From: Candidatus Magasanikiibacteriota bacterium
Lineage (GTDB): Bacteria; Patescibacteriota; Patescibacteriia; Magasanikbacterales; UBA922
Assembly: GCA_003518365.1 (NCBI GenBank)
Contig: DOYU01000010.1
Coordinates: 1,938 to 65,937 of the forward strand
Direction: 5' to 3'
DNA length: 64,000 nucleotides
Below are positions 6,688 to 58,840 of the stretch, piece after piece. The stretch's first letter is position 1. Every line of letters starts with the position of its first letter. Both the position numbers and the translations under genes were made by a program. Under the pieces are notes generated by a model. It saw nothing but the letters and a program-made list of their open reading frames with translations, had not been told where the DNA came from and did not search any database.

Positions 6688-7731
6688 ATGTTCAAAAATT
6701 TTACACAAAGATTTAGTCGCGATATTGGTATTGATCTTGGCACGGCCAACACCCTTGTCTACATCCCAGAGAAAGGTATTGTTGTTGATGAACCCTCGGT
6801 TGTCGCGATTCATAATAAAACAGGGCAGATTCTTGCGGTGGGGAATGAAGCAAAGTACATGATCGGAAAGACGCCACCCCATATTACGGTCACAAAACCG
6901 CTCAGTCATGGGGTCATCTCAGACTATGAAGTGACCGAAAAGATGTTGAAATATTTTATTGATAAAGTGCACGAAGACAGTCGTTCGTTTATGACACGCC
7001 CTAGGGTCGTCGTCTGTGTGCCCCTCGAAGTCACAGAGGTAGAGGTAAAAGCTGTAGAAGATGCAGCAGTGGCAGCAGGGGCAAAAGAAGTTCATGTGGT
7101 CCAAGAGCCAATGGCCGCGGCGATTGGTGTACGCATGCCCATTCAAGATCCTGTGGGGAATATGATTATTGATATTGGTGGGGGAAACACGGACGTTGCG
7201 GTGATTTCTTTGAGTGGCATTGTGACATGGAAATCCACAGAAATAGCAGGAGATGAAATGAATAAAAATATTGTTCAGTACGCACGAGAAGTATTCAATC
7301 TTCTGATTGGAGAGACCTATGCTGAGCAAATGAAGATAAAAATTGGATCAGCAATACTTTCTCCTGAACGTATGGAATTTCCTATGCGTGGTCGGGATGT
7401 TGTCAGTGGATTGCCAAGAGAGATCATGGTGACAAATGAACATATTCATGAGGCATTGGAACGTTCTGTAAATACCATTATTAGCCTTATAAAAACCACT
7501 TTGGAGCAAACACCGCCAGAATTGACGGCAGATATTCATGAGCGAGGCGTACTACTTACAGGTGGTGGGGCGATGCTTCGGGCGCTTGACACGATCATTG
7601 CTCGTGCTATCGAGATCCCTGTCCGAGTATCGAGTGATCCACTGACGGATGTAGTACGAGGTACCGGTATTCTTCTCGAAGATAGAGAGTTACTAAAGGA
7701 AATAGAATTGCCATCTGCTCGCGTGGCATAA
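6688..7731 (+). CDS. mreB: rod shape-determining protein MreB
   Basis: Actin-like ATPase motifs GIDLGTANTLVY, DIGGGNTDVAV. Confidence 0.9.
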   Translation: MFKNFTQRFSRDIGIDLGTANTLVYIPEKGIVVDEPSVVAIHNKTGQILAVGNEAKYMIGKTPPHITVTKPLSHGVISDYEVTEKMLKYFIDKVHEDSRSFMTRPRVVVCVPLEVTEVEVKAVEDAAVAAGAKEVHVVQEPMAAAIGVRMPIQDPVGNMIIDIGGGNTDVAVISLSGIVTWKSTEIAGDEMNKNIVQYAREVFNLLIGETYAEQMKIKIGSAILSPERMEFPMRGRDVVSGLPREIMVTNEHIHEALERSVNTIISLIKTTLEQTPPELTADIHERGVLLTGGGAMLRALDTIIARAIEIPVRVSSDPLTDVVRGTGILLEDRELLKEIELPSARVA

Positions 7732-7756
7732 TATCTATCCTTTTACGTATGTTATT

Positions 7757-8575
7757 ATGAATAGTCCTCGTTTTTTTAGGTCATTTCTTTGGTTGACAGT
7801 GCTTCTCTTAGTCGTTGTCATTTTGCATATTTCAGGCGTACTCCATTTTATCGAAACGCCTCTTACCAGAATGTTGTACAAGGGAAGTCAAGCCCTCTAC
7901 ACGCTGACAATTACAGGAGAAGACGATGTGTATCTGAAGACACTCACTGGAGAGGAATTGCGTCAGGCATATATGGGACTGCAAGAACGATATAATAATA
8001 TCGTCGTCGATGTTGCGCAGATAAAGGAATTGCAAAAAGAAAATGAAAATTTAAAGGAACAACTACAATTTTTTTCAGAAAAGGATTGGACATATTACAC
8101 TGGACGAGTCACAGGAAAGCAAATAAATCCGTTTGAAAGTACTATTTTAATGTATATCGACCATGCATCAGAGACAATTCCTGTCGGCGCGCCTGCGATT
8201 ACAAAGAGTGGCATATTTGTAGGAACAGTGGTGGCGGTTGATGGAAACATTATAAATATTCAGCTTCTGAACGATGGGCGAACGAAAGTTGGTGCATCAT
8301 TTTTGAATGATGAGCGAACCATCGGTGTAGCGGAAGGTGGGTATGGAAAAAGCATTCGAGTGAATTTTATTCCACAAAATGAGAAGATTGCAGCAGGGGA
8401 CATCGTGGTCACATCTGGACTCACACAGCTCATCCCGTATGGATTACCAATAGGCACAATAGAAACAGTAGAAAAAGAGCCGTATGAACCATTTCAAAGT
8501 GCAGTTTTGACACCACTTGCTGCACCAAATAGCTTAGAAGTCATTTCTATAATAGTAGAACAGATAGCAACATGA
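7757..8575 (+). CDS. mreC: rod shape-determining protein MreC
   Basis: N-terminal TM, coiled coil, beta-rich C-terminal domain; position between mreB and mreD. Confidence 0.75.
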   Translation: MNSPRFFRSFLWLTVLLLVVVILHISGVLHFIETPLTRMLYKGSQALYTLTITGEDDVYLKTLTGEELRQAYMGLQERYNNIVVDVAQIKELQKENENLKEQLQFFSEKDWTYYTGRVTGKQINPFESTILMYIDHASETIPVGAPAITKSGIFVGTVVAVDGNIINIQLLNDGRTKVGASFLNDERTIGVAEGGYGKSIRVNFIPQNEKIAAGDIVVTSGLTQLIPYGLPIGTIETVEKEPYEPFQSAVLTPLAAPNSLEVISIIVEQIAT

Positions 8576-46205: not shown

Positions 46206-46526
46206 ATGTTCTTGCTTGCTATGGATGACAATGACATTGAAGCGATCCTTCGGGACGCTAAAAACGTAAGAATGCCACATCGACGCGGATCATTTAATCC
46301 GTTATCTTCTCTTCCAGAACCAAAAGCCAAAATCAAACAAGCAATCAAGGAAAGAATCAGACTCTTGGCCGGTGCTTATATCTCACTGGCTGGATTTGTA
46401 GACGATGACGATATCCGGTTTGCCGAGGATAATCCAAAGTCAAAGAAAACTCGAGCAATGTATCACAAAGTGCTCGAGGATATGGAAATAGCAAAAAAAG
46501 AAATAAGGGAATTTAAAATATTATAG
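46206..46526 (+). CDS. hypothetical protein
   Basis: 106-aa ORF at the left edge of the accessory segment; no motif recognized. Confidence 0.35.
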   Translation: MFLLAMDDNDIEAILRDAKNVRMPHRRGSFNPLSSLPEPKAKIKQAIKERIRLLAGAYISLAGFVDDDDIRFAEDNPKSKKTRAMYHKVLEDMEIAKKEIREFKIL

Positions 46527-46699
46527 TAACTCTTCAAGCTCAACGGCATCGTCCTCGTCCACACCCAAATCTTCCATGATCTCCTGCACACGCTCGGCCG
46601 TGTCCTTATCAAGATCGTGACTTTCCATAAGCTCGACGACTTCTTTGTTTGGAGCTTCTTCGGCTGGTTCATCTTTAATTGGATCGTTATCGTCTACCA
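46520..46699 (-). CDS. small highly acidic protein (59 aa), last gene of the dcm/GHKL operon (frame absent from ORF track because <60 aa)
   Basis: Own six-frame read of 46520..46699: MVDDNDPIKDEPAEEAPNKEVVELMESHDLDKDTAERVQEIMEDLGVDEDDAVELEELL; about 40% Asp/Glu. The overlapping track ORF 46463..46672 is low complexity. Confidence 0.3.
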
Positions 46700-46714
46700 T
46701 AGCCCATATTTACT

Positions 46715-48388
46715 TTAGGCTTTCCCTGATAATAATGTGATAAGTCTGCCTTTAATATTTTCATAAACCGATGTTAGCTTCTTTTTCGCCGCATCAGTTA
46801 AAAGTGCTGTGTGAGCAAGAGAGTCTCGAATTGGCTTATACTCGTTTGCGTCTCTCGCAAGACAAGCCTCCTTAGTTGGATCTTTTGCTTTATCTACGAG
46901 GTATGCGAGATCATTCATGGATAAATAACTCAAATCACTATTATTTTTACGAATACCAATACTAACGTTGCCTTTATTTTTAGACTCTGTTTCTACTTTT
47001 TTCCATTTCGCAATTTCTGTTTTTGCTTCCTTTGACAGGGTTATTTTCTTTTCACCAATATAATTTCTGATTAAATTTTCTGACACAAAACATTCCGCAT
47101 AAGAACCAAAATTATATTGGGCATCATCAGCAAGATCATTAACCCACGTGTCAATTTTCTTTTTATGTTTTGATTTTCCTGCAACTGTGTATTCTTTGGA
47201 AACAGTGTTAAATAACTCCATTGATTTCCTATCTCGAGGGGTCATTCTCTCGTTTTCTGAATCGCCATCCTTCCTGTGGGCTATTCTCCATTTGTCCCAA
47301 TCTTCAACGATTTTTAATATCACACTTTTTCGCAGAGTATCTAGAAACTTTTTATATTTTGGATCATCGGCAACCACACCCTCTCGACTACTAGTAAATA
47401 TATCATCACCACTATCAAGTTCATTGAAGTGAATCTGCCCATACAAATAATTCTCAGCTACTCGAGATGTCGGTATGTGTTTTAGGATATCTCTTTCTCG
47501 CAATCTTCCGTTTACAAAAAGGTCAATTCCGATTCTTTCCTCAGTCGTCATTATTTTAAGATCTCTTGGTCGTTCAACTGACGCAATAAATCCTTTCATT
47601 TTATTTCCTTTAAGAACGATGTCTCTTTGCTCGTTTTTTTCTGTAGTAAATCTCTTCTCAAGACTTTGAATGTAAGGATCTTTATGTTCATTTATTTTCC
47701 ATAAAAACTCTGTTTTTTCAGCAAGATCATTGAGAGATTCGTGTGTGACTTTGTCGCCATCAATAAAAATATTAAATGTTTTATCTAAAAGTGAAAAACG
47801 AAAATATAAAGCAACAATCTTTTTCAAAAATTCTAAGCTATTTTGTATGCCGTCCTTGATGCCCTCAAAATAAATTATTGTGCCGTGTTTGTGATCTTTT
47901 GTATGGGTAGCAAAAGTGCTTTCTGTCCACGATCCAAGAGAATACTCCTTGGGAGTAAGATCTTCTGTTATTGCCTTGTCCAAACCCGAGTTATCAATGA
48001 CACCACCAATATAATTGCTGGATTTAGTTTTTGAGATAACAGTTATTTTTTCCGCACAAGATAACAAGGCTAATTTACCAATACCTTTTCTGCCTATAAA
48101 AGGTCTGCCCTTAGGGGAGGCGGAACCGCCATTTTTTCTCTTTGAGTATCCAATTTTCAAAAACTTATTTTGAAAATCATCCTTTGTCATACCCAAACCA
48201 TCATCCTTAATAAAAAAGCTATTACCTTTTTTATTGATATAGATTGAGACATTTTTTGCGTCAGCATCCCATGCGTTAGAGATTGCTTCTCCGAGAACCG
48301 TTGCAAAACTTCTGTACAGATTTCTTCCTAAGTGATTTAAGACGCTCAGTGAAATCTCAAAAGAGAAATTATCATTATTGTTTTTCAT
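46715..48388 (-). CDS. GHKL-superfamily ATPase (HATPase_c_3; MORC/paraMORC-like) associated with R-M genes
   Basis: Bergerat-fold motifs: N box EAISNAWDADA, G1 IKDDGLGMT, G2 GRKGIGKLA; overlaps dcm by 14 nt. Confidence 0.7.
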   Translation of the reverse strand: MKNNNDNFSFEISLSVLNHLGRNLYRSFATVLGEAISNAWDADAKNVSIYINKKGNSFFIKDDGLGMTKDDFQNKFLKIGYSKRKNGGSASPKGRPFIGRKGIGKLALLSCAEKITVISKTKSSNYIGGVIDNSGLDKAITEDLTPKEYSLGSWTESTFATHTKDHKHGTIIYFEGIKDGIQNSLEFLKKIVALYFRFSLLDKTFNIFIDGDKVTHESLNDLAEKTEFLWKINEHKDPYIQSLEKRFTTEKNEQRDIVLKGNKMKGFIASVERPRDLKIMTTEERIGIDLFVNGRLRERDILKHIPTSRVAENYLYGQIHFNELDSGDDIFTSSREGVVADDPKYKKFLDTLRKSVILKIVEDWDKWRIAHRKDGDSENERMTPRDRKSMELFNTVSKEYTVAGKSKHKKKIDTWVNDLADDAQYNFGSYAECFVSENLIRNYIGEKKITLSKEAKTEIAKWKKVETESKNKGNVSIGIRKNNSDLSYLSMNDLAYLVDKAKDPTKEACLARDANEYKPIRDSLAHTALLTDAAKKKLTSVYENIKGRLITLLSGKA

Positions 48389-49445
48389 AATATTTTAGGT
48401 GGTTCTTGATACTCTTGCCAATGACTGATCCCAGCCTTACTGGTACTGCATTTCCAATAAACTTCGCTACTTTAGTAACTACCATAGCGTCTTCAGACTC
48501 GGTAAATTTATAATTTTCAGGGAATGTTTGAAATATTGCGGCCTCCCTTAAACTTATAGCACGATTTTGTGTTGGGTGACCAAAACGACCATTCCCTAGA
48601 CCTATACATTGTGTGGTCATAGTCGGTGCTGGTTCATCCCATCTCATCCGACCGTATACGGTGCTTCGATAGGTCTTTCCGGAAGCCTTTTTGTGACAAG
48701 TAAGCATTAGATCTTCACTCCAGCTTTCTGAATTTCCACCATTGTGGGGAGTTGCCTTGATTCTCTCAAGATTTATTGGATCAAGTTTTCTTGCCTTATG
48801 GAGAGGGTCTTTTTTGCTCGTTTGACCATCTTTGATTGGTTCAAGGTGCCTGATGACATCACGAACAGTAACTCTTTTATCCTTGTGAGTTCTTTTTATC
48901 AATTCAATTTCACCAAACCTTGAAGCCAACAAAACTAATCGTTTTCGTTTTTGCGGTACGCCAAATTCTGAAACATCTACTACTTCATATTTATATTTAT
49001 ATCCATTATCCACCAGCGTCTTAATAAACTTAGCAAAAACGGGATATTTATTTGTGTCAGCTAAACCACTAACATTTTCCATTGAGACAATGTCTGGCTG
49101 AATAGCCGCGATAAGTTGAGCAAATTTGCCCAATGGCTCAAGTTGCTTTTCAGTAACTTTTTTTAAGTTTAATCTTGAAAATGGCTGACAAGGTGCGCAA
49201 CCAGCAAGAACACGAATCGTACCCTTTTTTGTTCCAAATAATTTATTAATTTGATCAGGCGTTACCTTGAGAATATCACTATCAATAAATTGAGTTTTGT
49301 TGTTGTACTCATAACCAAATTTACAGCTTGAATCGTTATCAATTCCTGCTACCACATCTAAACCCTCCTTGATAAGACCATGTGTAAGTCCACCAATGCC
49401 ACAAAATAGATCAACGACTTTAATTTTTGAGGATTGTGATTTCAT
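48375..49445 (-). CDS. dcm: DNA (cytosine-5)-methyltransferase
   Basis: Motif I DLFCGIGG, motif IV GCAPCQPFS (PCQ), motif VI ENV (SMENVSG). Confidence 0.85.
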   Translation of the reverse strand: MKSQSSKIKVVDLFCGIGGLTHGLIKEGLDVVAGIDNDSSCKFGYEYNNKTQFIDSDILKVTPDQINKLFGTKKGTIRVLAGCAPCQPFSRLNLKKVTEKQLEPLGKFAQLIAAIQPDIVSMENVSGLADTNKYPVFAKFIKTLVDNGYKYKYEVVDVSEFGVPQKRKRLVLLASRFGEIELIKRTHKDKRVTVRDVIRHLEPIKDGQTSKKDPLHKARKLDPINLERIKATPHNGGNSESWSEDLMLTCHKKASGKTYRSTVYGRMRWDEPAPTMTTQCIGLGNGRFGHPTQNRAISLREAAIFQTFPENYKFTESEDAMVVTKVAKFIGNAVPVRLGSVIGKSIKNHLKYYEKQ

Positions 49446-49467
49446 ACTAACAATAATTATATCAGTT

Positions 49468-49486
49468 TATCGAAAATTTTTCGATA
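49468..49486. promoter_or_regulatory. perfect 9-bp palindrome TATCGAAAA-t-TTTTCGATA upstream of dcm
   Basis: Located 23 nt upstream of the dcm start in the 105-nt gap between operons; candidate operator. Confidence 0.35.
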
Positions 49487-49550: not shown

Positions 49551-51086
49551 TTATACCGTACTGTATAAAACGGAATTATTTTCAACGTGGGTTAAAAATT
49601 CCTCGATTGTTTTTGGCAAGATCGAAAGATTCTCTTTCTCCTTAACATAATTAATCTGCATTACAGAATCTTTGAATATGCTAGGGGCCACAAAGTAACA
49701 CATAGAATCCTTTGTACCTTTTTGGAATTGGCTCAAATGTCTTGAGATCGGCCACACTTCCATCATAGTTTGCATGCGTCCCTCCGACATTGTAACTTCG
49801 ACTAATATACCCTTAACATCCTCGAAACATTCAATGTCACCCTTATCTCCAACGCCTCCAGCTGTTGATGTTGGGAGACCTTCATCGTCGTAAGGATAGT
49901 TTGATACCACTCTAACATTTGGAAACTTGGATTTAATAGCCAAAGACACAAGAAACTCTAATCTGACAGGATTTGATAAGTATTTCAAAACATCATCTTT
50001 TGTTAATCTCTTCTTGGCCAAATTTAACATTTCATCTTTAATCCTGTTCCAAGGATAAATACCAACCCACTTAGCCAAAAAGGCGTCTCTCTCGCCGACA
50101 CTTACCGGCTTGGCAACAAACGAGATAAGATTTTCATCCACAGCCGACATATACTCAAAATATGATTCCTCTGTGGTGTATTTTTTATAATCAGAATAAG
50201 TTGCTAAAGCATAATCAACCTTAGTTTGTTCATTTCTGTTTATATCAATAAAACGACCAGCACCTCTTAATGAGATCAATCCTGTTAATCTCATTTTTCT
50301 AATAAACTCATCCGGATAGTCAACCATTATCGACTTCGGATTAAATTTCTTAAAATCACCGTCCATGATCTGGTTAACACAAATATCCACAATAACTTCC
50401 CAGCTCGGGGTATAGCCGTGTTCTTTTCTGATTTTCTTTATAAGTTTGTAAAGCTTCTCGGCGTCGTTATCTTTCCAGAAAATAACCAAGGGCAATTCTA
50501 ATTTTGAAATTCCGGTCCCGTTTAAATCCTTGTCAGCATTTATTTTATTAATCACACTCAGTAGTAAAATCAGCGGTGCATTTTCATTGAGTACTCGCCT
50601 GAATGGACTATTGCTTTGATATTTTACAAATGCATTCAGAAAAGCCTGTTGTTCAAATTCTGGGTGTTCGTTATCAACCAATTTTAATCCAATATCAGAA
50701 AATCTTATCTTTTCACCGTTTTTGTAATAAACAAAACCAAGCTCTTTGGCAATCTTAAACCAAGTATCAAACCGAGAAGCCCAGCCCTTACTAAAACCGG
50801 CTTCTTTATGATTTTGCGGATTATCCTCAAGAACCTTTTTCACTTCAGAATCAGACAACGGCTCTTTTGTTTCAATTTTATTCTTTACAACAGCACTTAT
50901 GTTAGTCGGCTTATATAGTCCGACCCGAATAACTTCACCGGAGATTTCTTCAGCCAACTGATCGTCAAGCACTTTTCCGTTGTAATCTTTAAGTACTCCC
51001 AAAAACCACTTAAGCCTTTCTGGGTTTCTAAGTGTAGTAGTAAATAATAATGGTTTATATTCTGATTCTCTTGTTTTTGTTTTCAT
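49551..51086 (-). CDS. hypothetical 511-aa protein; candidate restriction endonuclease partner of the two adjacent adenine methyltransferases
   Basis: No methyltransferase motifs; possible PD-(D/E)XK-like stretch GDKGDIECFEDVK near C-terminus; operon context with two alpha-class N6A methyltransferases. Confidence 0.4.
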   Translation of the reverse strand: MKTKTRESEYKPLLFTTTLRNPERLKWFLGVLKDYNGKVLDDQLAEEISGEVIRVGLYKPTNISAVVKNKIETKEPLSDSEVKKVLEDNPQNHKEAGFSKGWASRFDTWFKIAKELGFVYYKNGEKIRFSDIGLKLVDNEHPEFEQQAFLNAFVKYQSNSPFRRVLNENAPLILLLSVINKINADKDLNGTGISKLELPLVIFWKDNDAEKLYKLIKKIRKEHGYTPSWEVIVDICVNQIMDGDFKKFNPKSIMVDYPDEFIRKMRLTGLISLRGAGRFIDINRNEQTKVDYALATYSDYKKYTTEESYFEYMSAVDENLISFVAKPVSVGERDAFLAKWVGIYPWNRIKDEMLNLAKKRLTKDDVLKYLSNPVRLEFLVSLAIKSKFPNVRVVSNYPYDDEGLPTSTAGGVGDKGDIECFEDVKGILVEVTMSEGRMQTMMEVWPISRHLSQFQKGTKDSMCYFVAPSIFKDSVMQINYVKEKENLSILPKTIEEFLTHVENNSVLYSTV

Positions 51087-51090
51087 ATAT

Positions 51091-51996
51091 TTAATAATTG
51101 GTAATTAACACTTCCTTGATCTGTTTCTTACCGTTATTGTGATAGCTGATATAATTGCTTTCAATTTTGTGCGTCTTATATTTTTTCATCCAATCAATCA
51201 GTAAATCATTTTTACTTCCGTTATAATGGGTTACATTTGATAGGGCAAACTTTATACCCTTCTTATCCAAATCATCAATCATCCCCAGCAAGTCGGCTTC
51301 AGCTTTTTGATCCCACCGCTTGTTGTATTCGCTTGCTGTTATCAGATAGGGTGGATCTAAATAAACGAAATCATTCTTAGAATATTTCCGGTTTGCAAAA
51401 TAAGCTCTGAAGTCCTTTGAACTTAAAGTCATCTTCTTATCTTGCACAAAATCAAAATAACCATTCAGAGCGTTAACAACATTTTTATTAAAATCGACAT
51501 TGCCAACCGGTAAATTAAATTTACCACCACCATTAAACCTCAACATTCTATTAAAACCATAGATAAGTAGAATATACAGAATTAAAGGATCATTCTTTAT
51601 GTGTTTATTTACGCAAACTCTTAATTTTTCGTAGCCCTCTTTATTAAATTTGGCAAAATAGGTCTTTTTCCATTCTTTTTTTAACGAGACCGGAATTATA
51701 TCTTCTTTATAAGATCGTGATAGGTGATATTTCTTGATTATCTTTTCTACATTCTTAAAAAATAAAGTTGGGTTATTTGCACTATTAATTAAGAAACGAT
51801 GTATGTTGATTAAATTTTTATCGTTATCATTTAAGTAGTATTTATTTGCGTTAATATTTAAAAAGACAGTACCACCGCCGACAAATGGTTCGTAAAAATT
51901 GTCTACTTCCTGTGGAAATAAACCAGCCAGTTGCTTCATTAATTTGTATTTATCCCCGACATAAAATAGCGGGGATCTCTTAATTTTATTTTGCAT
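51091..51996 (-). CDS. Dam-family (D12-class, alpha) N6-adenine DNA methyltransferase
   Basis: Motif X YVGDKYKL, motif I EPFVGGGTVFLN, motif IV DPPY (VYLDPPYLIT). Confidence 0.8.
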   Translation of the reverse strand: MQNKIKRSPLFYVGDKYKLMKQLAGLFPQEVDNFYEPFVGGGTVFLNINANKYYLNDNDKNLINIHRFLINSANNPTLFFKNVEKIIKKYHLSRSYKEDIIPVSLKKEWKKTYFAKFNKEGYEKLRVCVNKHIKNDPLILYILLIYGFNRMLRFNGGGKFNLPVGNVDFNKNVVNALNGYFDFVQDKKMTLSSKDFRAYFANRKYSKNDFVYLDPPYLITASEYNKRWDQKAEADLLGMIDDLDKKGIKFALSNVTHYNGSKNDLLIDWMKKYKTHKIESNYISYHNNGKKQIKEVLITNY

Positions 51997-53803
51997 GGTT
52001 TACGGTGGTTACAAATAAATACTCTTTATGGTTTTTGAAATCGGTATTGCCAGCGTTGAAATGCCTGTAGTCTTTTTCAAAGACTTTAGTTTTTCCCTTT
52101 GCCGATAAAATATCCTTGATCTCTTGTAGAGTAATTTTATTTTTTGATGAATTGCTTTTTGAATCGTAAGTATTATTGTAAGACACGACTAAATACTTGG
52201 CATTCAAATCTTTTACTAATTCGGCAAGCCTGTCTTTTGCTTGAACACGGCAATAATCGCTCATATTTTCCTCCTGAGGCTTCAGGGCGGTCCCAAACAA
52301 CTCTGGCTTATCCCATTTCGTTAAAGTTTCTAGGACATGGTAGAAACGACTATACTGCCTCGAGTTATAGGGTGGATCAATATAAACAATGTCAGCTTTA
52401 ATTTTTTTAGCTAAGAGGTTCGTATCTTCTTTATAAATTGTGACATTTTTTACTTCAATCGGATCAATAGGTCTCATAAAAAATCCGTCTTCGACATGTT
52501 CTTTTTTGAAATATGCATCATAGTGACCAACTGTATTGGCAACCTTATCGATTGAATACAATAACGAAGCAATAAGAATATAATATTCTTTATCCGACAG
52601 GTTCTTTCTGTTTTCCTCTATAGTTTCTCTAATGAACCCTATTATTTTGGCTGAGTTGTGGCTAAAATACTTACCGCCAAAATTAGTAGAAAAATAATTA
52701 TTCTCTAAATCACCACCGTCAATGTTGTTGTAGTCTTTGATAATATTTTCAATCTTGTTTTTATCCCATTCTCCATTGCCAAAAAAGGCTTGATAAATTG
52801 CATAGTTAGAATGTAAAAAATCGTTAAGAATGATTTCATCATAGTGTCTGGCCGCAACAGCCGAAACCACTCCGGTCCCAGCAAAAATATCAGCGAAAGA
52901 GTTGCCTTTTTCGCACTCCTTATTAATTACGGAAAATATCCATTCAATAAGTTTGTGCTTACTGCCAATATATCGGCGGTTTTGTAATTGTAAATAATTC
53001 TTTTTTACCTGTGGAATATAAAAATAATTCTCCTGTACTTTTTCGGCACTTATTTCGTAAGCTGGTTTTTCAAGCTCTAAAAGAGCAAACAAAGTTCCTT
53101 GTACACCGTCAGCTACATAGTCATAACTCTTTTTATCTTTGCTTAATTTTTCAAAAAAGCTACAGCTTCCGTTCTCCGCTGTGATAATAAAATCAATAAC
53201 AGCAATGCCCATTATCTCTCCAGCTTGGGATATTTTTTGTACCACCTCAATATCTCTTGTACTGGGAGATGAATCTCCGGAGGGGTGATTATGAACTAAT
53301 ATGATACTAGCGGAGTTAAGTTCTACTGCTGGATGAAAAATTTCTCTGGGATGTATTAAGCTTTTATCTAGCAAACCTACACTAATAATTTCTTTCTTTA
53401 TCAAAACATTTCTGGCGTTAAGATAAAGACACACTAAATATTCCTTTTTCTTGTCTCGTAGATCGTATGTTAAAGATAAAACATCCTGTTGGTTTTTTAT
53501 GATAGTGTCGCCACCTTTTTCTTCATCATAAAATCTTTTTACTAATGAAATGGCAGAAATAATTTGTAAGGCCTTGGCTTGCCCAATACCAGAAACCTCT
53601 AATAGGTCTTCAACTTTAATATTTAAAAAATTCTTGCCAAATTTCTTAATAATCTGTTCTGATAGCTGTTTAACATTTTTGCCTTTAATCCCACTACCCA
53701 GAAGAATCGCCAAAAGATCACTCTTTGAAAGTGCTTCTGATCCTTTTTTAAGGAACCTCTCTCGAGGACGATCTATTTTGGGGATGTCTTTTATTTTTGG
53801 CAT
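51986..53803 (-). CDS. fusion: RadC-like JAB/MPN domain (N) + alpha-class N6-adenine DNA methyltransferase (C)
   Basis: RadC signature HNHPSGDSSPSTRD preceded by an HhH-like region; then YIGSKHKL (motif X), DIFAGTGVVS (motif I), VYIDPPYNS (motif IV). Confidence 0.75.
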   Translation of the reverse strand: MPKIKDIPKIDRPRERFLKKGSEALSKSDLLAILLGSGIKGKNVKQLSEQIIKKFGKNFLNIKVEDLLEVSGIGQAKALQIISAISLVKRFYDEEKGGDTIIKNQQDVLSLTYDLRDKKKEYLVCLYLNARNVLIKKEIISVGLLDKSLIHPREIFHPAVELNSASIILVHNHPSGDSSPSTRDIEVVQKISQAGEIMGIAVIDFIITAENGSCSFFEKLSKDKKSYDYVADGVQGTLFALLELEKPAYEISAEKVQENYFYIPQVKKNYLQLQNRRYIGSKHKLIEWIFSVINKECEKGNSFADIFAGTGVVSAVAARHYDEIILNDFLHSNYAIYQAFFGNGEWDKNKIENIIKDYNNIDGGDLENNYFSTNFGGKYFSHNSAKIIGFIRETIEENRKNLSDKEYYILIASLLYSIDKVANTVGHYDAYFKKEHVEDGFFMRPIDPIEVKNVTIYKEDTNLLAKKIKADIVYIDPPYNSRQYSRFYHVLETLTKWDKPELFGTALKPQEENMSDYCRVQAKDRLAELVKDLNAKYLVVSYNNTYDSKSNSSKNKITLQEIKDILSAKGKTKVFEKDYRHFNAGNTDFKNHKEYLFVTTVNHAK

Positions 53804-53806
53804 ATT

Positions 53807-54055
53807 TTAATTCTTCTTTTTGGTTTTAATATTACTTGTCTCATCCAAAAAAGCATTGAGATCAGATTGCTTGATACGCCAAACACCAAGCTTGGATGCC
53901 TTTAACCTGCCCGACTCGATATATCGGGTGACAGTGCGTGTATGAACTCTTAAAATTTTGGCGATTTCTTCTATTGTGAAAAGTTTTTCAATTTCGTTCA
54001 TAAGAATTATATTAGTCGTTGATATCATTTTACCTCTTCTGCTTTTCATTGTCAA
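53807..54055 (-). CDS. excisionase-family HTH DNA-binding protein (Xis/AlpA/MerR-like)
   Basis: LFTIEEIAKILRVHTRTVTRYIESGRLKASKLGVWRIKQSDLNAFL matches the excisionase-family HTH pattern. Confidence 0.6.
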   Translation of the reverse strand: MTMKSRRGKMISTTNIILMNEIEKLFTIEEIAKILRVHTRTVTRYIESGRLKASKLGVWRIKQSDLNAFLDETSNIKTKKKN

Positions 54056-54174: not shown

Positions 54175-54909
54175 ATGAACTGGGAAGTAAGGATTAGGCT
54201 TGCATCCAGTAAAAACATGACTATGAAAATGAAAAAGGCCTCAAAGACCACAAAATACAAATTCAACATAAAGAAAATTGTCTCTAAGTCAATGACTTAC
54301 CGTTTTTCTCTCGGAATAGTTAAAGATGTTGTAAAAAATGCTCTGGAAAATTCCGGTATCAAAAATTCGGATGATATTATAAAGAGGCACGAGGACGAGA
54401 TCGTAGAGCTAAAAGATAGGCTAAACAAAACAGACACTAAATTTGAAAGCTATAAAAAAGAGACTAACAAAACAATTGCCGAATTAAAAGATGAACTGGG
54501 AAAAGTTAGTAAACAGAACCTGACTCAGATCGGCCGAGAAATGGCTATCGGTTTTTATGAACAGAGCCAAAAGATACGGTCCAAACAGAAAGAAAAGAAA
54601 ACTAAAGAAACTTTGCTCTGCCTCTCCTCAGACGGCGATCTATACCTAGCGTCCAATCAACAAAAATGTTATCCGATGAGTAAAGAGAAAATGCGTGAGA
54701 AATTGATAAAAGTTTTATGCTCGGCCAAAGGTTATATCAAGACGGCCGAGTTGGCTGAAATGGTCGGCACGACCAATCAAGCGATTAGAAATTCCAAGCT
54801 GGAGATAAATAATAAATCTAAAAATCGGATTGGCATTGATAAACTGATTATCGGCCGTGACGGCAATGGCTATCGCTTAAATCCAGAATATAAAATCAAA
54901 ATACTATAG
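54175..54909 (+). CDS. hypothetical coiled-coil protein with possible C-terminal winged-helix
   Basis: 244-aa ORF divergent from the Xis-like gene; followed by terminator. Confidence 0.4.
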   Translation: MNWEVRIRLASSKNMTMKMKKASKTTKYKFNIKKIVSKSMTYRFSLGIVKDVVKNALENSGIKNSDDIIKRHEDEIVELKDRLNKTDTKFESYKKETNKTIAELKDELGKVSKQNLTQIGREMAIGFYEQSQKIRSKQKEKKTKETLLCLSSDGDLYLASNQQKCYPMSKEKMREKLIKVLCSAKGYIKTAELAEMVGTTNQAIRNSKLEINNKSKNRIGIDKLIIGRDGNGYRLNPEYKIKIL

Positions 54910-54942
54910 CGTAATAGTCGGTGTAGTTAATAACTTCAATGA

Positions 54943-54970
54943 GAGAGCCTGAAATAGGGCTCTTTTTTGT
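54943..54970 (+). terminator. rho-independent terminator (agagcc-tgaaata-gggctct + T-run)
   Basis: Hairpin followed by tttttt. Confidence 0.55.
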
Positions 54971-55055
54971 TGCCCAACTACACCTGGGCATTATTCCAAG
55001 AGATGGGCAACGATTGGCAAACTATAAATGTGTGAGAGTAAAAAAATGAAATGAT

Positions 55056-55307
55056 ATGCCAATCAAACAAAGTGAGAGTTTCAAGACCGCCGATCTGGCA
55101 TTGATCGCGGTGCTTTTATTATTAATGCCCGAATCTCTTGAGGTCGTGGATCGGACAAATCCGCATAAGGTCCTCTTTGGATTTAAAACTGACCGCAAGC
55201 TCGAAAAGCTTATGGACAGTTTTTGGAAACGAGAGCTTGTGGTCGAACCTCAAGCGTTCTTTAACCAAATCAAAATCGCCAAAGCCAGGATCTATGTCCA
55301 CGAATAA
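55056..55307 (+). CDS. hypothetical protein (island cargo)
   Basis: 83-aa ORF in GC-richer segment. Confidence 0.35.
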   Translation: MPIKQSESFKTADLALIAVLLLLMPESLEVVDRTNPHKVLFGFKTDRKLEKLMDSFWKRELVVEPQAFFNQIKIAKARIYVHE

Positions 55308-55309
55308 AT

Positions 55310-55519
55310 ATGAAGTTAAAACCGGAAACGCTGGAAAAACTCCGAGCGATTCTCAAAAAAGACTTTGGCCAAGAAGTGAATGATCAAGACCTCCACGATA
55401 TCGCATTCAATCTCGTGAGTTATTACGACGCTCTGTCGCGATTCTACTGGGAGGATATCACGAGCGGTCGAAAGCTTATAGAACCATATGACACAGTACC
55501 CGAGCGACAAACCACATAA
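55310..55519 (+). CDS. hypothetical protein (island cargo)
   Basis: 69-aa ORF directly following the previous one. Confidence 0.3.
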   Translation: MKLKPETLEKLRAILKKDFGQEVNDQDLHDIAFNLVSYYDALSRFYWEDITSGRKLIEPYDTVPERQTT

Positions 55520-56060
55520 GATCAGAGATTATCGCGAATTGCCGTTTGCTTACCAAGATAAGCCAGCTTTGCGGTACATGCGACAACAATGGCTCGATAA
55601 GCACATTAGCATTGATGCCTACCGGAATCTCCGGAACATGTATCTGGCTTTGACTGAGATTGCCTCCAACAAAGCCAGTCAAACCATAGAGGCGTCCAAC
55701 AAAACGCTTTTGATTTATTCCGGACTCAAAGACTGGCGAACGATTAAGAATTGTTTGTCCAAGCTCGAGGAGTGGGCTTTTATCGCGATCACAAAAACTC
55801 GGGGCGAGGATGCAAAGTTCAAGCCCCGAGGTATCACTTTGCTGTCCGTCCTACATCTGACGCAGGGTGGAAACCAATCAGCATCAAAAGCCGGACGGCA
55901 TAGCACGCAGACTGCCTCCGGTGCAGAAGATATAGAAGGTAATGGATTAAAAGAAATTAAAGAAAATAATAAAGAAATTAACGGCCGGTCCAAGAATTTA
56001 AAACTCTTGGCCGAGGCGAGAGCCAAACTCGTAGCTAAGATGACCCTACAAAACAAATGA
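55488..56060 (+). CDS. hypothetical protein, possible DNA-binding/replication-related (island cargo)
   Basis: 190-aa ORF; basic N-terminal half; no firm motif. Confidence 0.35.
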   Translation: MTQYPSDKPHKIRDYRELPFAYQDKPALRYMRQQWLDKHISIDAYRNLRNMYLALTEIASNKASQTIEASNKTLLIYSGLKDWRTIKNCLSKLEEWAFIAITKTRGEDAKFKPRGITLLSVLHLTQGGNQSASKAGRHSTQTASGAEDIEGNGLKEIKENNKEINGRSKNLKLLAEARAKLVAKMTLQNK

Positions 56061-56148
56061 TTTTCGGTTATAAACGGCAACATTTGGCAACGAAATGAGC
56101 AAAAAACCGATAATAAATAATCATTAAACGATACTAAATGATACCTAA

Positions 56149-56622
56149 ATGGCTAAATCTGTAGACATAAAAAATGAAAAATATCAGAATGCGATCCGCT
56201 TAAAATATGGCGATTTTACTTATTTAGAGATTGCCCGGATGCTTAAAGTTTCTCATGTCAGTGTAAAGAGATGGTTTCGGTCAGACGGCTTACTGAAAGA
56301 CGAATACGACCGATATGAAAAAGAAAGAAACCGTGTACGCGACAAAGAGACTGATACTGTGCTGGCGAGACATTCTGTAATTGCGGCCAATATTCTGGTC
56401 TCGCTTATGGGTGCCAAAAGCGATGTCATGAAATTCAGAGCTGTTAAAGCCATTTTGGATTATGTACTGGGTCCAGTAAGAACCATGGGCAGTGACGATC
56501 CTTACGATAACGCCGATTATCGGCGAGATAGCGACAGTATTGCGAGAATACTGGAAAGTGCTAGGAAAAGACAACAAAAATCCACTGTGGGCAACTCGAG
56601 CTTAGCTTGTCCGAAAAAATAG
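56149..56622 (+). CDS. HTH-domain protein (possible phage terminase small subunit-like or regulator)
   Basis: N-terminal HTH-like YLEIARMLKVSHVSVKRW. Confidence 0.35.
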   Translation: MAKSVDIKNEKYQNAIRLKYGDFTYLEIARMLKVSHVSVKRWFRSDGLLKDEYDRYEKERNRVRDKETDTVLARHSVIAANILVSLMGAKSDVMKFRAVKAILDYVLGPVRTMGSDDPYDNADYRRDSDSIARILESARKRQQKSTVGNSSLACPKK

Positions 56623-56681
56623 CGTATGTTGTGTCTTGAGACCAAAAGTCGAATTCGAACCTTAGTAAAATTAACAAAATT

Positions 56682-58469
56682 ATGACTATGACAATGCAAA
56701 ACGAAAATGAATCGATGCGAGCCGTAGGATATGCCCGTGTCTCCTCCAAGGATCAAGAGGACACTGGATACTCACTACCGGCTCAAGAAAAACTTCTACA
56801 CGATTATGCCGACAGAAACGGTTTTGATCTGGTAAAAGTTTTTGCTATTCAAGAATCGGCGGCCGGAAAAATCCAACGAAAGATATTCCACGAGATGTTG
56901 GACTATGTGACCAAAGCCAAGATCAATACGATCTTCGTGGAAACCACCGACCGTTTAACCCGTAACTTCGCTGATGTGCCGATAATTGACGAATGGATAC
57001 TGGCGGATGAAAAGCACACCATTCATCTGGTAAAAGAAGGCTGTACCTTACACAAAGACTCCAAGTCCCACGAATGGTTTATGTGGCGAGTCAAAGTGGC
57101 TACGGCCGAATATTATATCCGACTCCTTTCCGAGAATGTGAAAAAGGGGCAGAAAGAAAAATTGGCTCAAGGCTGGCTACCAAGCAAACCGCCACTGGGA
57201 TACCAGACCACTGGCGAGAAAGGACACAAAATCCATATCATTGATCCGGACAAATCGCCACTGGTCAAAAAGATGTTTGACCTTTACGCCTCCAATCGCT
57301 ACTCAACCAAAAAGCTGGCCGATGAAATGCATAAGCTTGGCATGCGGTCTCGAGGAGGAAATAAAGTCAGTCATTCAAGAGTCCACCAACTACTGGGCGA
57401 TCCGTTTTATTATGGAATGAATCGCTGGAACGGCAAAGTCGCTCAAGGCGGACACGAACCGCTGATAACCAAAGAATTATTCATGCGATGCCAAGACATA
57501 ATGCATAGCAACGGTACGCCGAAATACAACAAGCACAATCCGTTATTTAAAAATGTCTTCCACTGTGAGGAATGCAAAGGCCGGATAACTTGGGAGATAC
57601 AAAAAGGCCACTGGTATGGCCACTGCAACCATTATAAAAACTGCCAGCAAAAGGAATGGGTCAAACAAGAGAACATTGACCTGCAAGTAATGGAAAATAT
57701 CGAGCATTTAAGCTCAAAGCACAACGAGGCCATAGAGAATATGCTCACTTGGGTCCAAGAGGCACTCAAAGAAAGCCACGGCGAGGAGATAGAATTCCGA
57801 CAAAAGGCCACTGGCGAACTTGAGCGACGCTACCAAGTCGCCACGCAAAGACTGGATAAGATATACGATGACAAGATAGACGGCAAGATCAGCGAGGACT
57901 TCTACCAGAAAAAGTACCAGCAGTACAAAATTGAACAAGAGGAAGTGTTGGACGGACTGAATAAGCACAAAAATGCCAACCTCAAGTATTACGATATGGG
58001 GTCAACCTTTTTACAAATGGCCAAAGAGGCAAGGAGAATTTATTTGAACCGAAGCACGATTGAAATGGTCGACGACAAGAAACAACTTTTGTCCCTTTTA
58101 TTTTCGAACCCTATAATAAATGGCAAGAAAGTTGAGATTTCATACCAGAAAGCCTTCAAAATGGTATTTGAACGAGTATCACAGATGTTGGGAGAAAATA
58201 CAGACGAAAATACAACATTCGAACCGCTGAAAAAGCCCGTAGATAAAGAGAAAAGCAGAGCTTTTGGCTCTGCTCATCCCATATGGCTCGACGGGTGGGA
58301 CTCGAACCCACGACCAATTGGTTACACGTCATCCACAATTTTCATTGCGGCGTGGACTATATCATCACCCTCGCCTATTTCCGATCATGTCGGAATCGTT
58401 AGGGTGCGAAGCGCTTCCCCTGCATCAAATATGTTCGAACAAGGTACTCCCCGAAGGGATAGTCTCTGA
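56682..58469 (+). CDS. large serine recombinase (resolvase/invertase N-domain + recombinase domain + zinc ribbon)
   Basis: Catalytic Ser region GYARVSSKDQ; zinc ribbon CEECKGR...HCNHYKNC; the last ~60 codons are antisense to the tRNA-Asn 3' exon and intron. Confidence 0.8.
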   Translation: MTMTMQNENESMRAVGYARVSSKDQEDTGYSLPAQEKLLHDYADRNGFDLVKVFAIQESAAGKIQRKIFHEMLDYVTKAKINTIFVETTDRLTRNFADVPIIDEWILADEKHTIHLVKEGCTLHKDSKSHEWFMWRVKVATAEYYIRLLSENVKKGQKEKLAQGWLPSKPPLGYQTTGEKGHKIHIIDPDKSPLVKKMFDLYASNRYSTKKLADEMHKLGMRSRGGNKVSHSRVHQLLGDPFYYGMNRWNGKVAQGGHEPLITKELFMRCQDIMHSNGTPKYNKHNPLFKNVFHCEECKGRITWEIQKGHWYGHCNHYKNCQQKEWVKQENIDLQVMENIEHLSSKHNEAIENMLTWVQEALKESHGEEIEFRQKATGELERRYQVATQRLDKIYDDKIDGKISEDFYQKKYQQYKIEQEEVLDGLNKHKNANLKYYDMGSTFLQMAKEARRIYLNRSTIEMVDDKKQLLSLLFSNPIINGKKVEISYQKAFKMVFERVSQMLGENTDENTTFEPLKKPVDKEKSRAFGSAHPIWLDGWDSNPRPIGYTSSTIFIAAWTISSPSPISDHVGIVRVRSASPASNMFEQGTPRRDSL

Positions 58470-58713
58470 ACCTTTTTCCATGTATGGACGCACATACGTT
58501 TCTCTCTCAAGGAGAGTGCTCTTATGCACACCTATATAATCATACCTGAAAACTTGGCTGCGAATTGCCATACAGATCCACAAGGGATCTGCGAAGGGTT
58601 CTCGCAATTCACTTCGTTGGCATCCTTCTGTTTCTAGAAGGAGCTGCTAGTGCGCCTAGATTGCTCTATACGTCTATTTACAGCCAACTGCTCTACCGCT
58701 GAGCTACCGTCGA
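58284..58713 (-). tRNA. tRNA-Asn(GTT) interrupted by a group I intron in the anticodon loop (exons 58680..58713 and 58284..58324)
   Basis: 5' exon TCGACGGTAGCTCAGCGGTAGAGCAGTTGGCTGT; 3' exon TAACCAATTGGTCGTGGGTTCGAGTCCCACCCGTCGAGCCA; acceptor, D, anticodon and T stems pair; spliced anticodon loop CUGUUAA. Confidence 0.7.
58325..58679 (-). ncRNA. group I self-splicing intron (355 nt) within tRNA-Asn
   Basis: Conserved group I core R element GTTCAGAGACTA (plus 58460..58471) and S element GATATAGTCC (plus 58354..58363) forming P7; 5' exon ends in U, intron ends in G; internal guide GCAGCU can pair with exon end GGCUGU. Confidence 0.7.
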
Positions 58714-58769
58714 ATATGTTGTAATCGAGCATAGTGTACTCGACTTGTGTGAGCCTGTAAAGACTCTTG

Positions 58770-58840
58770 TTCGGGGACAGGGATTCGAACCCCGATAGTC
58801 AGGATCAAAACCTGAAGTCCTACCTTTAGACGATCCCCGA
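58770..58840 (-). tRNA. tRNA-Gln(TTG)
   Basis: Cloverleaf: acceptor TCGGGGA/TCCCCGA, anticodon loop TTTTGAT, T-loop TTCGAAT; 71 nt, no encoded CCA. Confidence 0.75.

Follow-up and report, generated by a model that had tools for sequence, protein, structure and literature searches.

A Dcm-coupled GHKL ATPase with a HEPN-like C-terminus: a candidate methylation-gated cassette in a Candidatus Magasanikiibacteriota contig

Proteins with an N-terminal GHKL ATPase domain are already known among REBASE entries. Orlowski and Bujnicki (2008) distinguished five REBASE subfamilies of this kind, including R.HgiDII and R.NmeAIP; the C-terminus of the former was given as of unknown fold, and that of the latter, which bears the REBASE suffix 'P' (putative), matched Hypoth_Ymh (PMC2441816). 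The NmeAI system comprises modification, restriction and patch-repair genes (PMC3787668). Anantharaman et al. (2013) assigned Ymh to the HEPN domains, found it fused to paraMORCs in restriction–modification (R-M) neighbourhoods, and proposed, by analogy with PrrC and RloC, that paraMORC-HEPN fusions are RNases (PMC3710099). The present work concerns a 64,000-nucleotide stretch (hereafter the window) of contig DOYU01000010.1 from a Candidatus Magasanikiibacteriota bacterium, in which a gene for a C5 cytosine DNA methyltransferase (Dcm) is followed by a gene for a 557-amino-acid (aa) GHKL ATPase. We propose, with confidence that is evenly balanced, that these two genes make up a self-contained, horizontally mobile, R-M-like cassette, in which 5-methylcytosine (m5C) gates a HEPN nuclease under the control of ATP.

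The original prediction had described a three-gene operon here, i.e., Dcm, the ATPase and a very acidic 59-aa protein. The three minus-strand open reading frames (ORFs), the 14 nt shared by the Dcm and ATPase genes (48375-48388) and all of the quoted motifs were confirmed in the translations. Dcm reads DLFCGIGG (FxGxGG), GCAPCQ (PCQ) and SMENV (ENV), and the ATPase reads GEAISNAWDADA (ExxxNAxDA), DDGLGM (DxGxG) and GRKGIGK (GxxGxG). Profile searches, which had been proposed as a check, aligned Dcm over its full length with PF00145 DNA_methylase (1.3e-57) and matched the ATPase to PF13589 HATPase_c_3 (8.9e-22). Dcm was also recovered by TIGR00675 (2.5e-40) and by the PADLOC model MTase_II PDLC03378 (7e-88), and its catalytic motifs are complete, QxRxR and GNAVP being visible besides the three named above. 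The nearest public genome is a metagenome-assembled genome (MAG) of Candidatus Magasanikbacteria, a member of the candidate phyla radiation (CPR), whose Dcm and ATPase are 97-98% identical to those of the window.

In an alignment of 70 cassette partners, the target-recognition region of Dcm is nearly gap-free, and a single specificity, with the same motif recognised across the family, is therefore suggested. CCGG has been reported as the recognition site of M.NmeAI (PMC7973814). We considered transferring this specificity to the window Dcm and rejected it, as the identity to the decayed Dcm of an NmeAI-type locus from N. gonorrhoeae (33%, target-recognition region included) is too low.

The ATPase belongs to a large family. 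A protein search gave 4811 relatives among the 8000 candidates scored, and all 39 homologs in the alignment keep E34, N38, D41, D62-D63-G64-x-G66, G99-R-K-G-I-G-K105 and G169-T170; judged by these comparisons, it is a genuine conserved gene and not a chance reading frame. Residues 1-376 matched the NCBIfam model NF050001 (BbrUII/HgiDII restriction enzyme) with 307 bits (2e-91). The match covers model positions 1-369 of 659 and lies below the curated cutoff of 550 bits, so that the protein is not a full-length member of that family. The same residues match two PADLOC REase_II models in their N-terminal halves. As a control, a 652-aa protein of the E. coli phage PhiR44_1, which is annotated as "ParaMORC3" and adjoins a Dcm gene, scored 751 bits against NF050001 over positions 1-658. 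Residues 7-384 of the ATPase are 36% identical to this HgiDII-family enzyme, and the similarity ends there. On this sequence evidence, residues 1-376 are placed with the HgiDII/BbrUII-type (paraMORC3-annotated) GHKL+S5 module.

In the AlphaFold model of the 557-aa protein (predicted local distance difference test (pLDDT) score 75.5), the N-terminal two thirds are alpha/beta, and the top Foldseek matches are the N and M domains of Hsp90/TRAP1/GRP94 (E ~1e-11), MORC2 ranking 40th. The GHKL and S5 features of the MORC family are present, since the ATP-binding motifs are invariant and the model matches both Hsp90 N+M and MORC2. Thus, the term "MORC-like" used in the original prediction held for the domain composition and the intact motifs, but not for the closest kinship, which is with HgiDII/BbrUII, nor for the best structural matches. 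Weak matches were obtained to the sacsin-type model NF047352 (1e-5, GHKL domain) and to MutL models. The protein is neither a histidine kinase nor a housekeeping Hsp90 or MutL homolog, two identities that the original prediction had listed against itself. In the P2-like phage PhiR44_1 (L099 2495-5543), the gene for the full HgiDII/BbrUII-family GHKL enzyme is convergent with the Dcm gene, and the pair sits between a portal gene and a replication gene.

The window protein's C-terminal domain (residues 377-557) had no match when searched against Pfam, PADLOC and the PDB sequences. Among 1.84 billion representative proteins, a profile search returned 241 relatives of this domain; the full-length ones are all 550-590 aa long with the domain always C-terminal, and for this reason the domain appears specific to the GHKL-HEPN architecture. 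An all-alpha helical bundle is predicted (model pLDDT 72). R521 and H526 are invariant in the 39 close homologs and in 27 divergent ones (24-50% identity), and E437, N438, R441, Y488, R521 and H526 are the only invariant positions in the divergent alignment. R-x4-H-[T/S] was found within the last 70 residues of 57 of the 59 cluster representatives, mostly as RN/RD-x3-HT; the window protein, with R521-D-x3-H526-T, likewise has a polar residue after the arginine. Rx4H corresponds to the canonical motif that Anantharaman et al. (2013) described for HEPN domains (PMC3710099). H526 lies 31 residues before the C-terminus, with one final helix after the motif, a placement similar to that of catalytic H107 in the HEPN toxin 7ae2 (141 residues). 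In the cluster representatives, the motif likewise stands ~30 residues from the end, ahead of a single final helix. When the 27 divergent members were scanned singly, HEPN_Swt1 was the commonest Pfam match (4 of 27, best E 0.0015, below threshold), and one member matched the KEN domain family Ribonuc_2-5A (E 0.042). Because of the invariant RxxxxH and ENxxR motifs and the sub-threshold HEPN_Swt1 matches in divergent members, we regard the C-terminal domain as very probably a HEPN domain, of a family without a curated model. The original prediction had seen no endonuclease domain in the ATPase; these comparisons instead point to a nuclease domain of the RNase type, standing in place of the HgiDII/BbrUII nuclease.

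The genomic setting was compared across 80 species loci (L010-L089) and nine places in metagenomes (L001-L009). At 55-70% identity, relatives of the ATPase are encoded by at least 584 species genomes, bacterial (Patescibacteria, Bacteroidota, Nitrospirota, Planctomycetota, Chloroflexota, Pseudomonadota, Actinomycetota and others) as well as archaeal (Woesearchaeota, Thaumarchaeota and Thermoplasmata). Dcm stands beside the ATPase in 78 of the 80 species loci; in 66 it lies directly upstream on the same strand, usually with an overlap of 4-17 nt, and in six it lies downstream, twice on the opposite strand. The coupling of Dcm and GHKL proteins described by Iyer, Abhiman and Aravind in 2008 (PMC2292703), which the original prediction had invoked, is thus borne out as tight linkage, and Dcm is no orphan. 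In L050 and L079, Dcm is of a different subfamily. Of the 72 loci whose flank is long enough, 32 have a Vsr gene immediately 3′ of the ATPase gene (35 of 80 overall), and Vsr is present anywhere in the locus in 45 of 80; the window has none. Such a frequent occurrence of Vsr implies that Dcm truly methylates the genome, i.e., that genomic m5C is genuine. The flanking genes change with the genome and include kdp genes, HicAB, a conjugative plasmid, type I R-M and, in L001-L003, a convergent HTH_3 gene. Since these surroundings are unrelated between genomes, the pair of Dcm and ATPase, with or without Vsr, is a mobile unit. In alignments of 70 cassette pairs taken from these loci and the window, the divergence of Dcm was correlated with that of the ATPase (Mantel r 0.43, p ~0.001). 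Public records label the GHKL-HEPN protein merely "ATP-binding protein" or "DNA mismatch repair protein".

We suggest that the cassette may act in the following way. Dcm would mark host DNA with m5C at one specific motif, probably common to the family, and this mark would be protective. Its partner would be a dimerising GHKL+S5 ATPase of the HgiDII/BbrUII type, in which a HEPN domain whose R-[D/N]-x3-H motif is intact has taken the place of the usual nuclease. The GHKL+S5 module is expected to bind or clamp DNA and to read the methylation of cognate sites; engagement of DNA by a GHKL+S5 dimer was proposed for paraMORCs by Iyer et al. in 2008 (PMC2292703). The trigger may be unmethylated DNA, either foreign or belonging to a host that has lost the cassette. 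ATP-driven dimerisation of the N-terminal parts would then join two HEPN domains into a composite active site, ATP thereby gating the nuclease. By analogy, the active HEPN nuclease most likely cuts RNA, which is the likelier substrate because the characterised HEPN enzymes are metal-independent RNases using the 2′-OH (PMC3710099). Instead of a DNA double-strand break, the outcome would be arrested translation or growth, abortive infection or post-segregational killing. Vsr, found in about half of the cassettes, would repair the T:G mismatches that arise from deamination of m5C. The full proposal, in which a restriction system would read DNA yet cut RNA, with a clamp sensing unmethylated sites and switching on a HEPN RNase for both defence and addiction, is put forward tentatively, and it may well turn out otherwise.

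Several points weigh against this scheme. No experimental or biochemical study of any family member was found in the literature. The homologous GHKL module of HgiDII/BbrUII works with a DNA-cutting domain, and for this reason DNA stays a candidate target on genomic grounds. Killing the host through its RNA at each entry of unmethylated DNA would be costly. The ATPase is more conserved than Dcm (median pairwise identity 58% vs 50%, minimum 49% vs 19%), which is the reverse of the usual R-M pattern and atypical for restriction enzymes. As regards the HEPN assignment, Foldseek of the C-terminal model against the PDB gave nothing significant (best E 0.2, the top three matches being Csm6), no Pfam HEPN model reached threshold in the window protein or in the divergent members, and hhalign against the Neisseria Ymh domain aligned the RNxxxH motif alone (probability <1%). 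Furthermore, there is no Dcm within 13.6 kb in L038, and in three loci (L028 950-3617, L038 3309-5932 and L079 3311-5993) the GHKL-HEPN gene is directly preceded by two genes encoding a Cys-rich protein of ~620 aa and a PLD-family (HxKx4D) nuclease of ~300 aa. The GHKL-HEPN protein can therefore work in other settings, and these three loci may represent a second system type built on the same protein.

The alternative that survives best is an ordinary DNA-cleaving Type II enzyme, which would recognise the Dcm site and cut unmethylated DNA; its helical C-terminus would serve as a module for DNA recognition or dimerisation, or would put the fold to an unprecedented DNA-cutting use. We consider this possible but unlikely. 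Such an enzyme would agree with the homology of the N-terminal two thirds to the proven restriction endonuclease (REase) family HgiDII/BbrUII (GTCGAC) (PMC2441816), and PADLOC would label the pair MTase_II plus REase_II. The gene order is the classic one of modification gene, overlapping restriction gene and optional Vsr, with a convergent HTH_3 gene in one genome (L001-L003), and the uniformity of the target-recognition region in Dcm suggests a single, fixed specificity. However, the part of the HgiDII-type enzymes beyond position 369, which holds the nuclease, is absent, and the Pfam and PADLOC scans detected no PD-(D/E)xK, HNH, GIY-YIG or PLD signature in the 557 aa. Moreover, the invariant polar residues of the C-terminus form R-[D/N]-x3-H. 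In characterised HEPN enzymes, this motif serves metal-independent cleavage of RNA via the 2′-OH, a group absent in DNA.

The pair could also be a toxin-antitoxin or abortive-infection system, in which the Dcm protein would restrain the GHKL-HEPN toxin by contact or by expression level, and disturbance by a phage would release the RNase without methylation being the signal. The overlap of the two genes suggests translational coupling, and a precedent is offered by PrrC, which is kept latent by its R-M partner (discussed in PMC3710099). This explanation is nevertheless improbable: the frequent Vsr makes sense only with a genuinely methylated genome, the catalytic motifs and the target-recognition region of Dcm are all conserved, and the gene order is not fixed, Dcm lying downstream in six loci and, in two of these, on the opposite strand. 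Quite improbable, too, is a MutL-like accessory of very-short-patch repair, where the GHKL protein would aid Vsr at T:G mismatches and have no role in restriction. MutL, itself GHKL+S5, stimulates Vsr in E. coli, a parallel already drawn by Iyer et al. in 2008 (PMC2292703); about half of the loci have Vsr immediately downstream, and the ATPase weakly matches MutL models. Half of the cassettes, including that of the window, nonetheless have no Vsr and always have the GHKL protein, the invariant HEPN motif would be left without a role, and the relatives of the module are restriction enzymes. Finally, the original prediction had offered the 511-aa protein encoded next to Dcm as an effector, and a single system spanning 46.5-51.1 kb with a nuclease-free GHKL motor would suit the adjacency of the genes, their common strand and their one low-GC island, but it can practically be dismissed, since this protein is an AlwI-family endonuclease (RE_AlwI) with its own pair of D12 methylases immediately upstream, is absent from all 80 species loci and the nine metagenome places, and is missing from the sister MAG (L010), where a 98% identical cassette lies beside type I R-M.

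Table 1. Features of the cassette and of its surroundings in the window (positions count from the first letter of the window).
Feature	Position	Strand	Details
Dcm (C5 cytosine DNA methyltransferase)	48375-49445	-	356 aa; modification gene of the proposed cassette
GHKL ATPase gene	46715-48388	-	557 aa
GHKL (Bergerat) ATPase domain	47789-48388	-	residues 1-200; PF13589
Middle S5/transducer-like domain and helical linker	47261-47788	-	residues 201-376
C-terminal all-helical HEPN-like domain	46718-47260	-	residues 377-557
Codons of the HEPN Rx4H motif	46811-46828	-	R521-D-S-L-A-H526; R521 and H526 invariant
Codons of the second invariant motif	47066-47080	-	E437-N438-L-I-R441; E, N and R invariant
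Acidic small ORF	46521-46700	-	59 aa
Promoter-like site	49456-49484	-	TCGAAA-17-TATAAT, extended TG, 10/12 consensus matches; just upstream of the Dcm start
AlwI-family endonuclease (RE_AlwI)	49551-51086	-	511 aa; PF09491 1.8e-42 (146 bits); PADLOC REase_II 1e-127
Dam-like D12 methylase	51091-51996	-	301 aa
RadC/JAB-D12 methylase fusion	51986-53803	-	605 aa; full RadC/JAB and UPF0758 N-terminal domain
Excisionase/MAD1-like helix-turn-helix (HTH) gene	53807-54055	-	82 aa; precedes the AlwI-type system
69-aa ORF	55310-55519	+	shares 47% identity with the N-terminal half of the 96-aa protein that partners the acidic ORF
Large serine recombinase	56682-58469	+	595 aa
tRNA-Gln	58769-58840	-	near the serine recombinase

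The features of the region are collected in Table 1. The cassette lies in a low-GC stretch (guanine-plus-cytosine (GC) content 0.31-0.38, against 0.405 for the whole window), which continues toward higher coordinates with the AlwI-family endonuclease, the two D12 methylases and the excisionase-type HTH gene. Judged by its gene content, the minus-strand block 49551-54055 is a separate and complete R-M system of the AlwI type, acting through N6-methyladenine (m6A). The AlwI-type enzyme is accompanied by two D12 m6A methylases, an arrangement usual in systems with asymmetric sites. The fusion of RadC with a methylase is unusual. None of the genes of this system was found in the other GHKL-HEPN loci, either among the 80 species loci or in the nine metagenome places, and in the sister MAG its position is taken by the type I R-M system. 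The promoter-like site falls within the 105 nt that separate Dcm from the AlwI-type gene. Because such sites are no more common in the region than in shuffled sequences, this consensus match is only a pointer to the cassette having its own promoter.

The acidic ORF, which the original prediction had counted as the third member of the operon, fared differently from the other two. It starts 14 nt after the ATPase stop. No minus-strand terminator-like site was found in these 14 nt or downstream of the acidic ORF (the only such match on this strand, 47957-47943, lies within the ATPase gene), and co-transcription of the two genes is therefore possible. We nevertheless rejected the acidic ORF as a component of the cassette, as the sister MAG holds the only other GHKL-HEPN locus with a homolog of it, and as it accompanies different cargo elsewhere. 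Its GC content (0.467) is unlike that of the cassette, and its copy in the sister MAG (7693-7872) is 83% identical, compared with 98% for the cassette. The acidic ORF nonetheless encodes a genuine, conserved small protein, whose family comprises 144 clusters at 60-100% identity, and those with a named source come mostly from CPR bacteria. In seven other loci (L092-L098, 4001-4475), a conserved 96-aa gene starts 4 nt after the acidic ORF; the cargo before it consists of GmrSD, an HTH gene, a reverse transcriptase and PDDEXK_1 in L092-L095, and of a D12 methylase, small ORFs and TspO in L096-L098. Judging from these neighbourhoods, the acidic ORF seems to be a conserved gene that borders variable cargo in a CPR mobile element, and it may mark the limit of a cargo hotspot there. 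A 106-aa ORF on the plus strand (46206-46526), which has no match in Pfam, NCBIfam or PADLOC, is convergent with the acidic ORF, their ends overlapping by 6 nt.

On the other side of the two R-M systems, a plus-strand block (54175-58840) encodes proteins of 244, 83, 69, 190 and 157 aa and the 595-aa recombinase. The tail of the recombinase ORF reads ...GWDSNPRP..., which we take to resemble a translated tRNA T-arm. The 69-aa relative of the 96-aa gene and the large serine recombinase beside tRNA-Gln support the mobile-element reading and suggest that the R-M island is the cargo of an element integrated at a tRNA. A search for direct or inverted repeats bounding the island gave short, weak matches only.

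The GHKL-HEPN family is thus huge and unusually conserved, and the literature search found no experimental study devoted to it. Owing to the N-terminal module, defence-annotation tools would file the pair as an ordinary Type II R-M system. The architectural idea itself has been in the literature since 2008-2013. If HEPN is the effector, the pair would be an R-M-like system with RNA cleavage as its probable output, linking epigenetic marking of self and non-self to a response of the abortive-infection type, and it would offer a tractable two-gene test case for the paraMORC-HEPN predictions of 2008 and 2013. For annotation, what looked by eye like one operon can now be resolved into two R-M systems that are independent of each other and a mobile-element gene unrelated to them.

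Among the known systems, NmeAI of Neisseria resembles the cassette in gene order, with Dcm, a GHKL+S5 protein bearing a C-terminal RNxxxH, and Vsr (PMC3787668; PMC2441816; PMC3710099). The GHKL module of the window is 27% identical to its counterpart over residues 8-368, and Dcm is 33% identical, whereas the window has no Vsr and its C-terminal domain does not match PF09509. We considered filing this domain under Ymh and rejected it, as PF09509 Hypoth_Ymh gave no match even at E values up to 10 and the hhalign alignment was confined to the motif. In the N. gonorrhoeae chromosome record mentioned above (L091 3086-6051), the locus of the NmeAI type has decayed, with Dcm broken into two ORFs and the 297-aa GHKL part standing apart from the Ymh/HEPN part (198 aa; PF09509 2.9e-25, motif RNPVQH); Vsr is intact. 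HgiDII/BbrUII (NF050001; GTCGAC) has a homologous GHKL+S5 module and an m5C methylase as partner (PMC5867850), but its C-terminal part of ~290 residues is replaced in the window by an unrelated helical HEPN-like domain of 180 residues.

The paraMORCs of Iyer, Abhiman and Aravind (2008) and the GHKL-Shedu protein VcSduA share with the window a GHKL+S5 module in R-M or defence loci with methylases and Vsr, and a variable C-terminal effector (PMC2292703; PMC12137116). Those families carry RE-fold, TIR or HxH domains or work with superfamily II (SFII) helicases, whereas the effector of the window protein is HEPN-like; no SFII helicase was noticed among the genes listed or named in the neighbourhoods examined, the 80 loci not having been scanned for helicases. 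Two V. cholerae systems were considered as relatives and rejected, namely WonAB, an ABC ATPase with PD-(D/E)xK, and VcSduA, in which GHKL is joined to a Shedu nuclease, a different C-terminal domain. PrrC and RloC are likewise NTPases with a C-terminal HEPN RNase tied genetically to R-M (PMC3710099); however, theirs are ABC-type ATPases encoded within type I R-M operons, which bring a DNA endonuclease of their own, while the ATPase of the window is of the GHKL type and the cassette has no other nuclease. In the HATPase_c_3/HEF_HK plus Response_reg_2 modules of Bellieny-Rabelo et al. (2021), Dcm is likewise encoded upstream of a paraMORC-like protein, and Vsr is often present (PMC8011034), but their histidine-kinase-like C-termini and response-regulator-like partner are both missing from the window. 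Sacsin of eukaryotes combines an Hsp90-like GHKL module with HEPN; it is a giant chaperone unlinked to DNA methylation and has no sequence similarity in the HEPN part. The resemblance may be convergent. A corollary of our proposal is that GHKL-HEPN would be the closest prokaryotic counterpart of this Hsp90-like and HEPN combination. Taken together, the system is of the GHKL/paraMORC-HEPN kind coupled to m5C methylases, which has been predicted computationally before, and the system itself belongs to no curated family.

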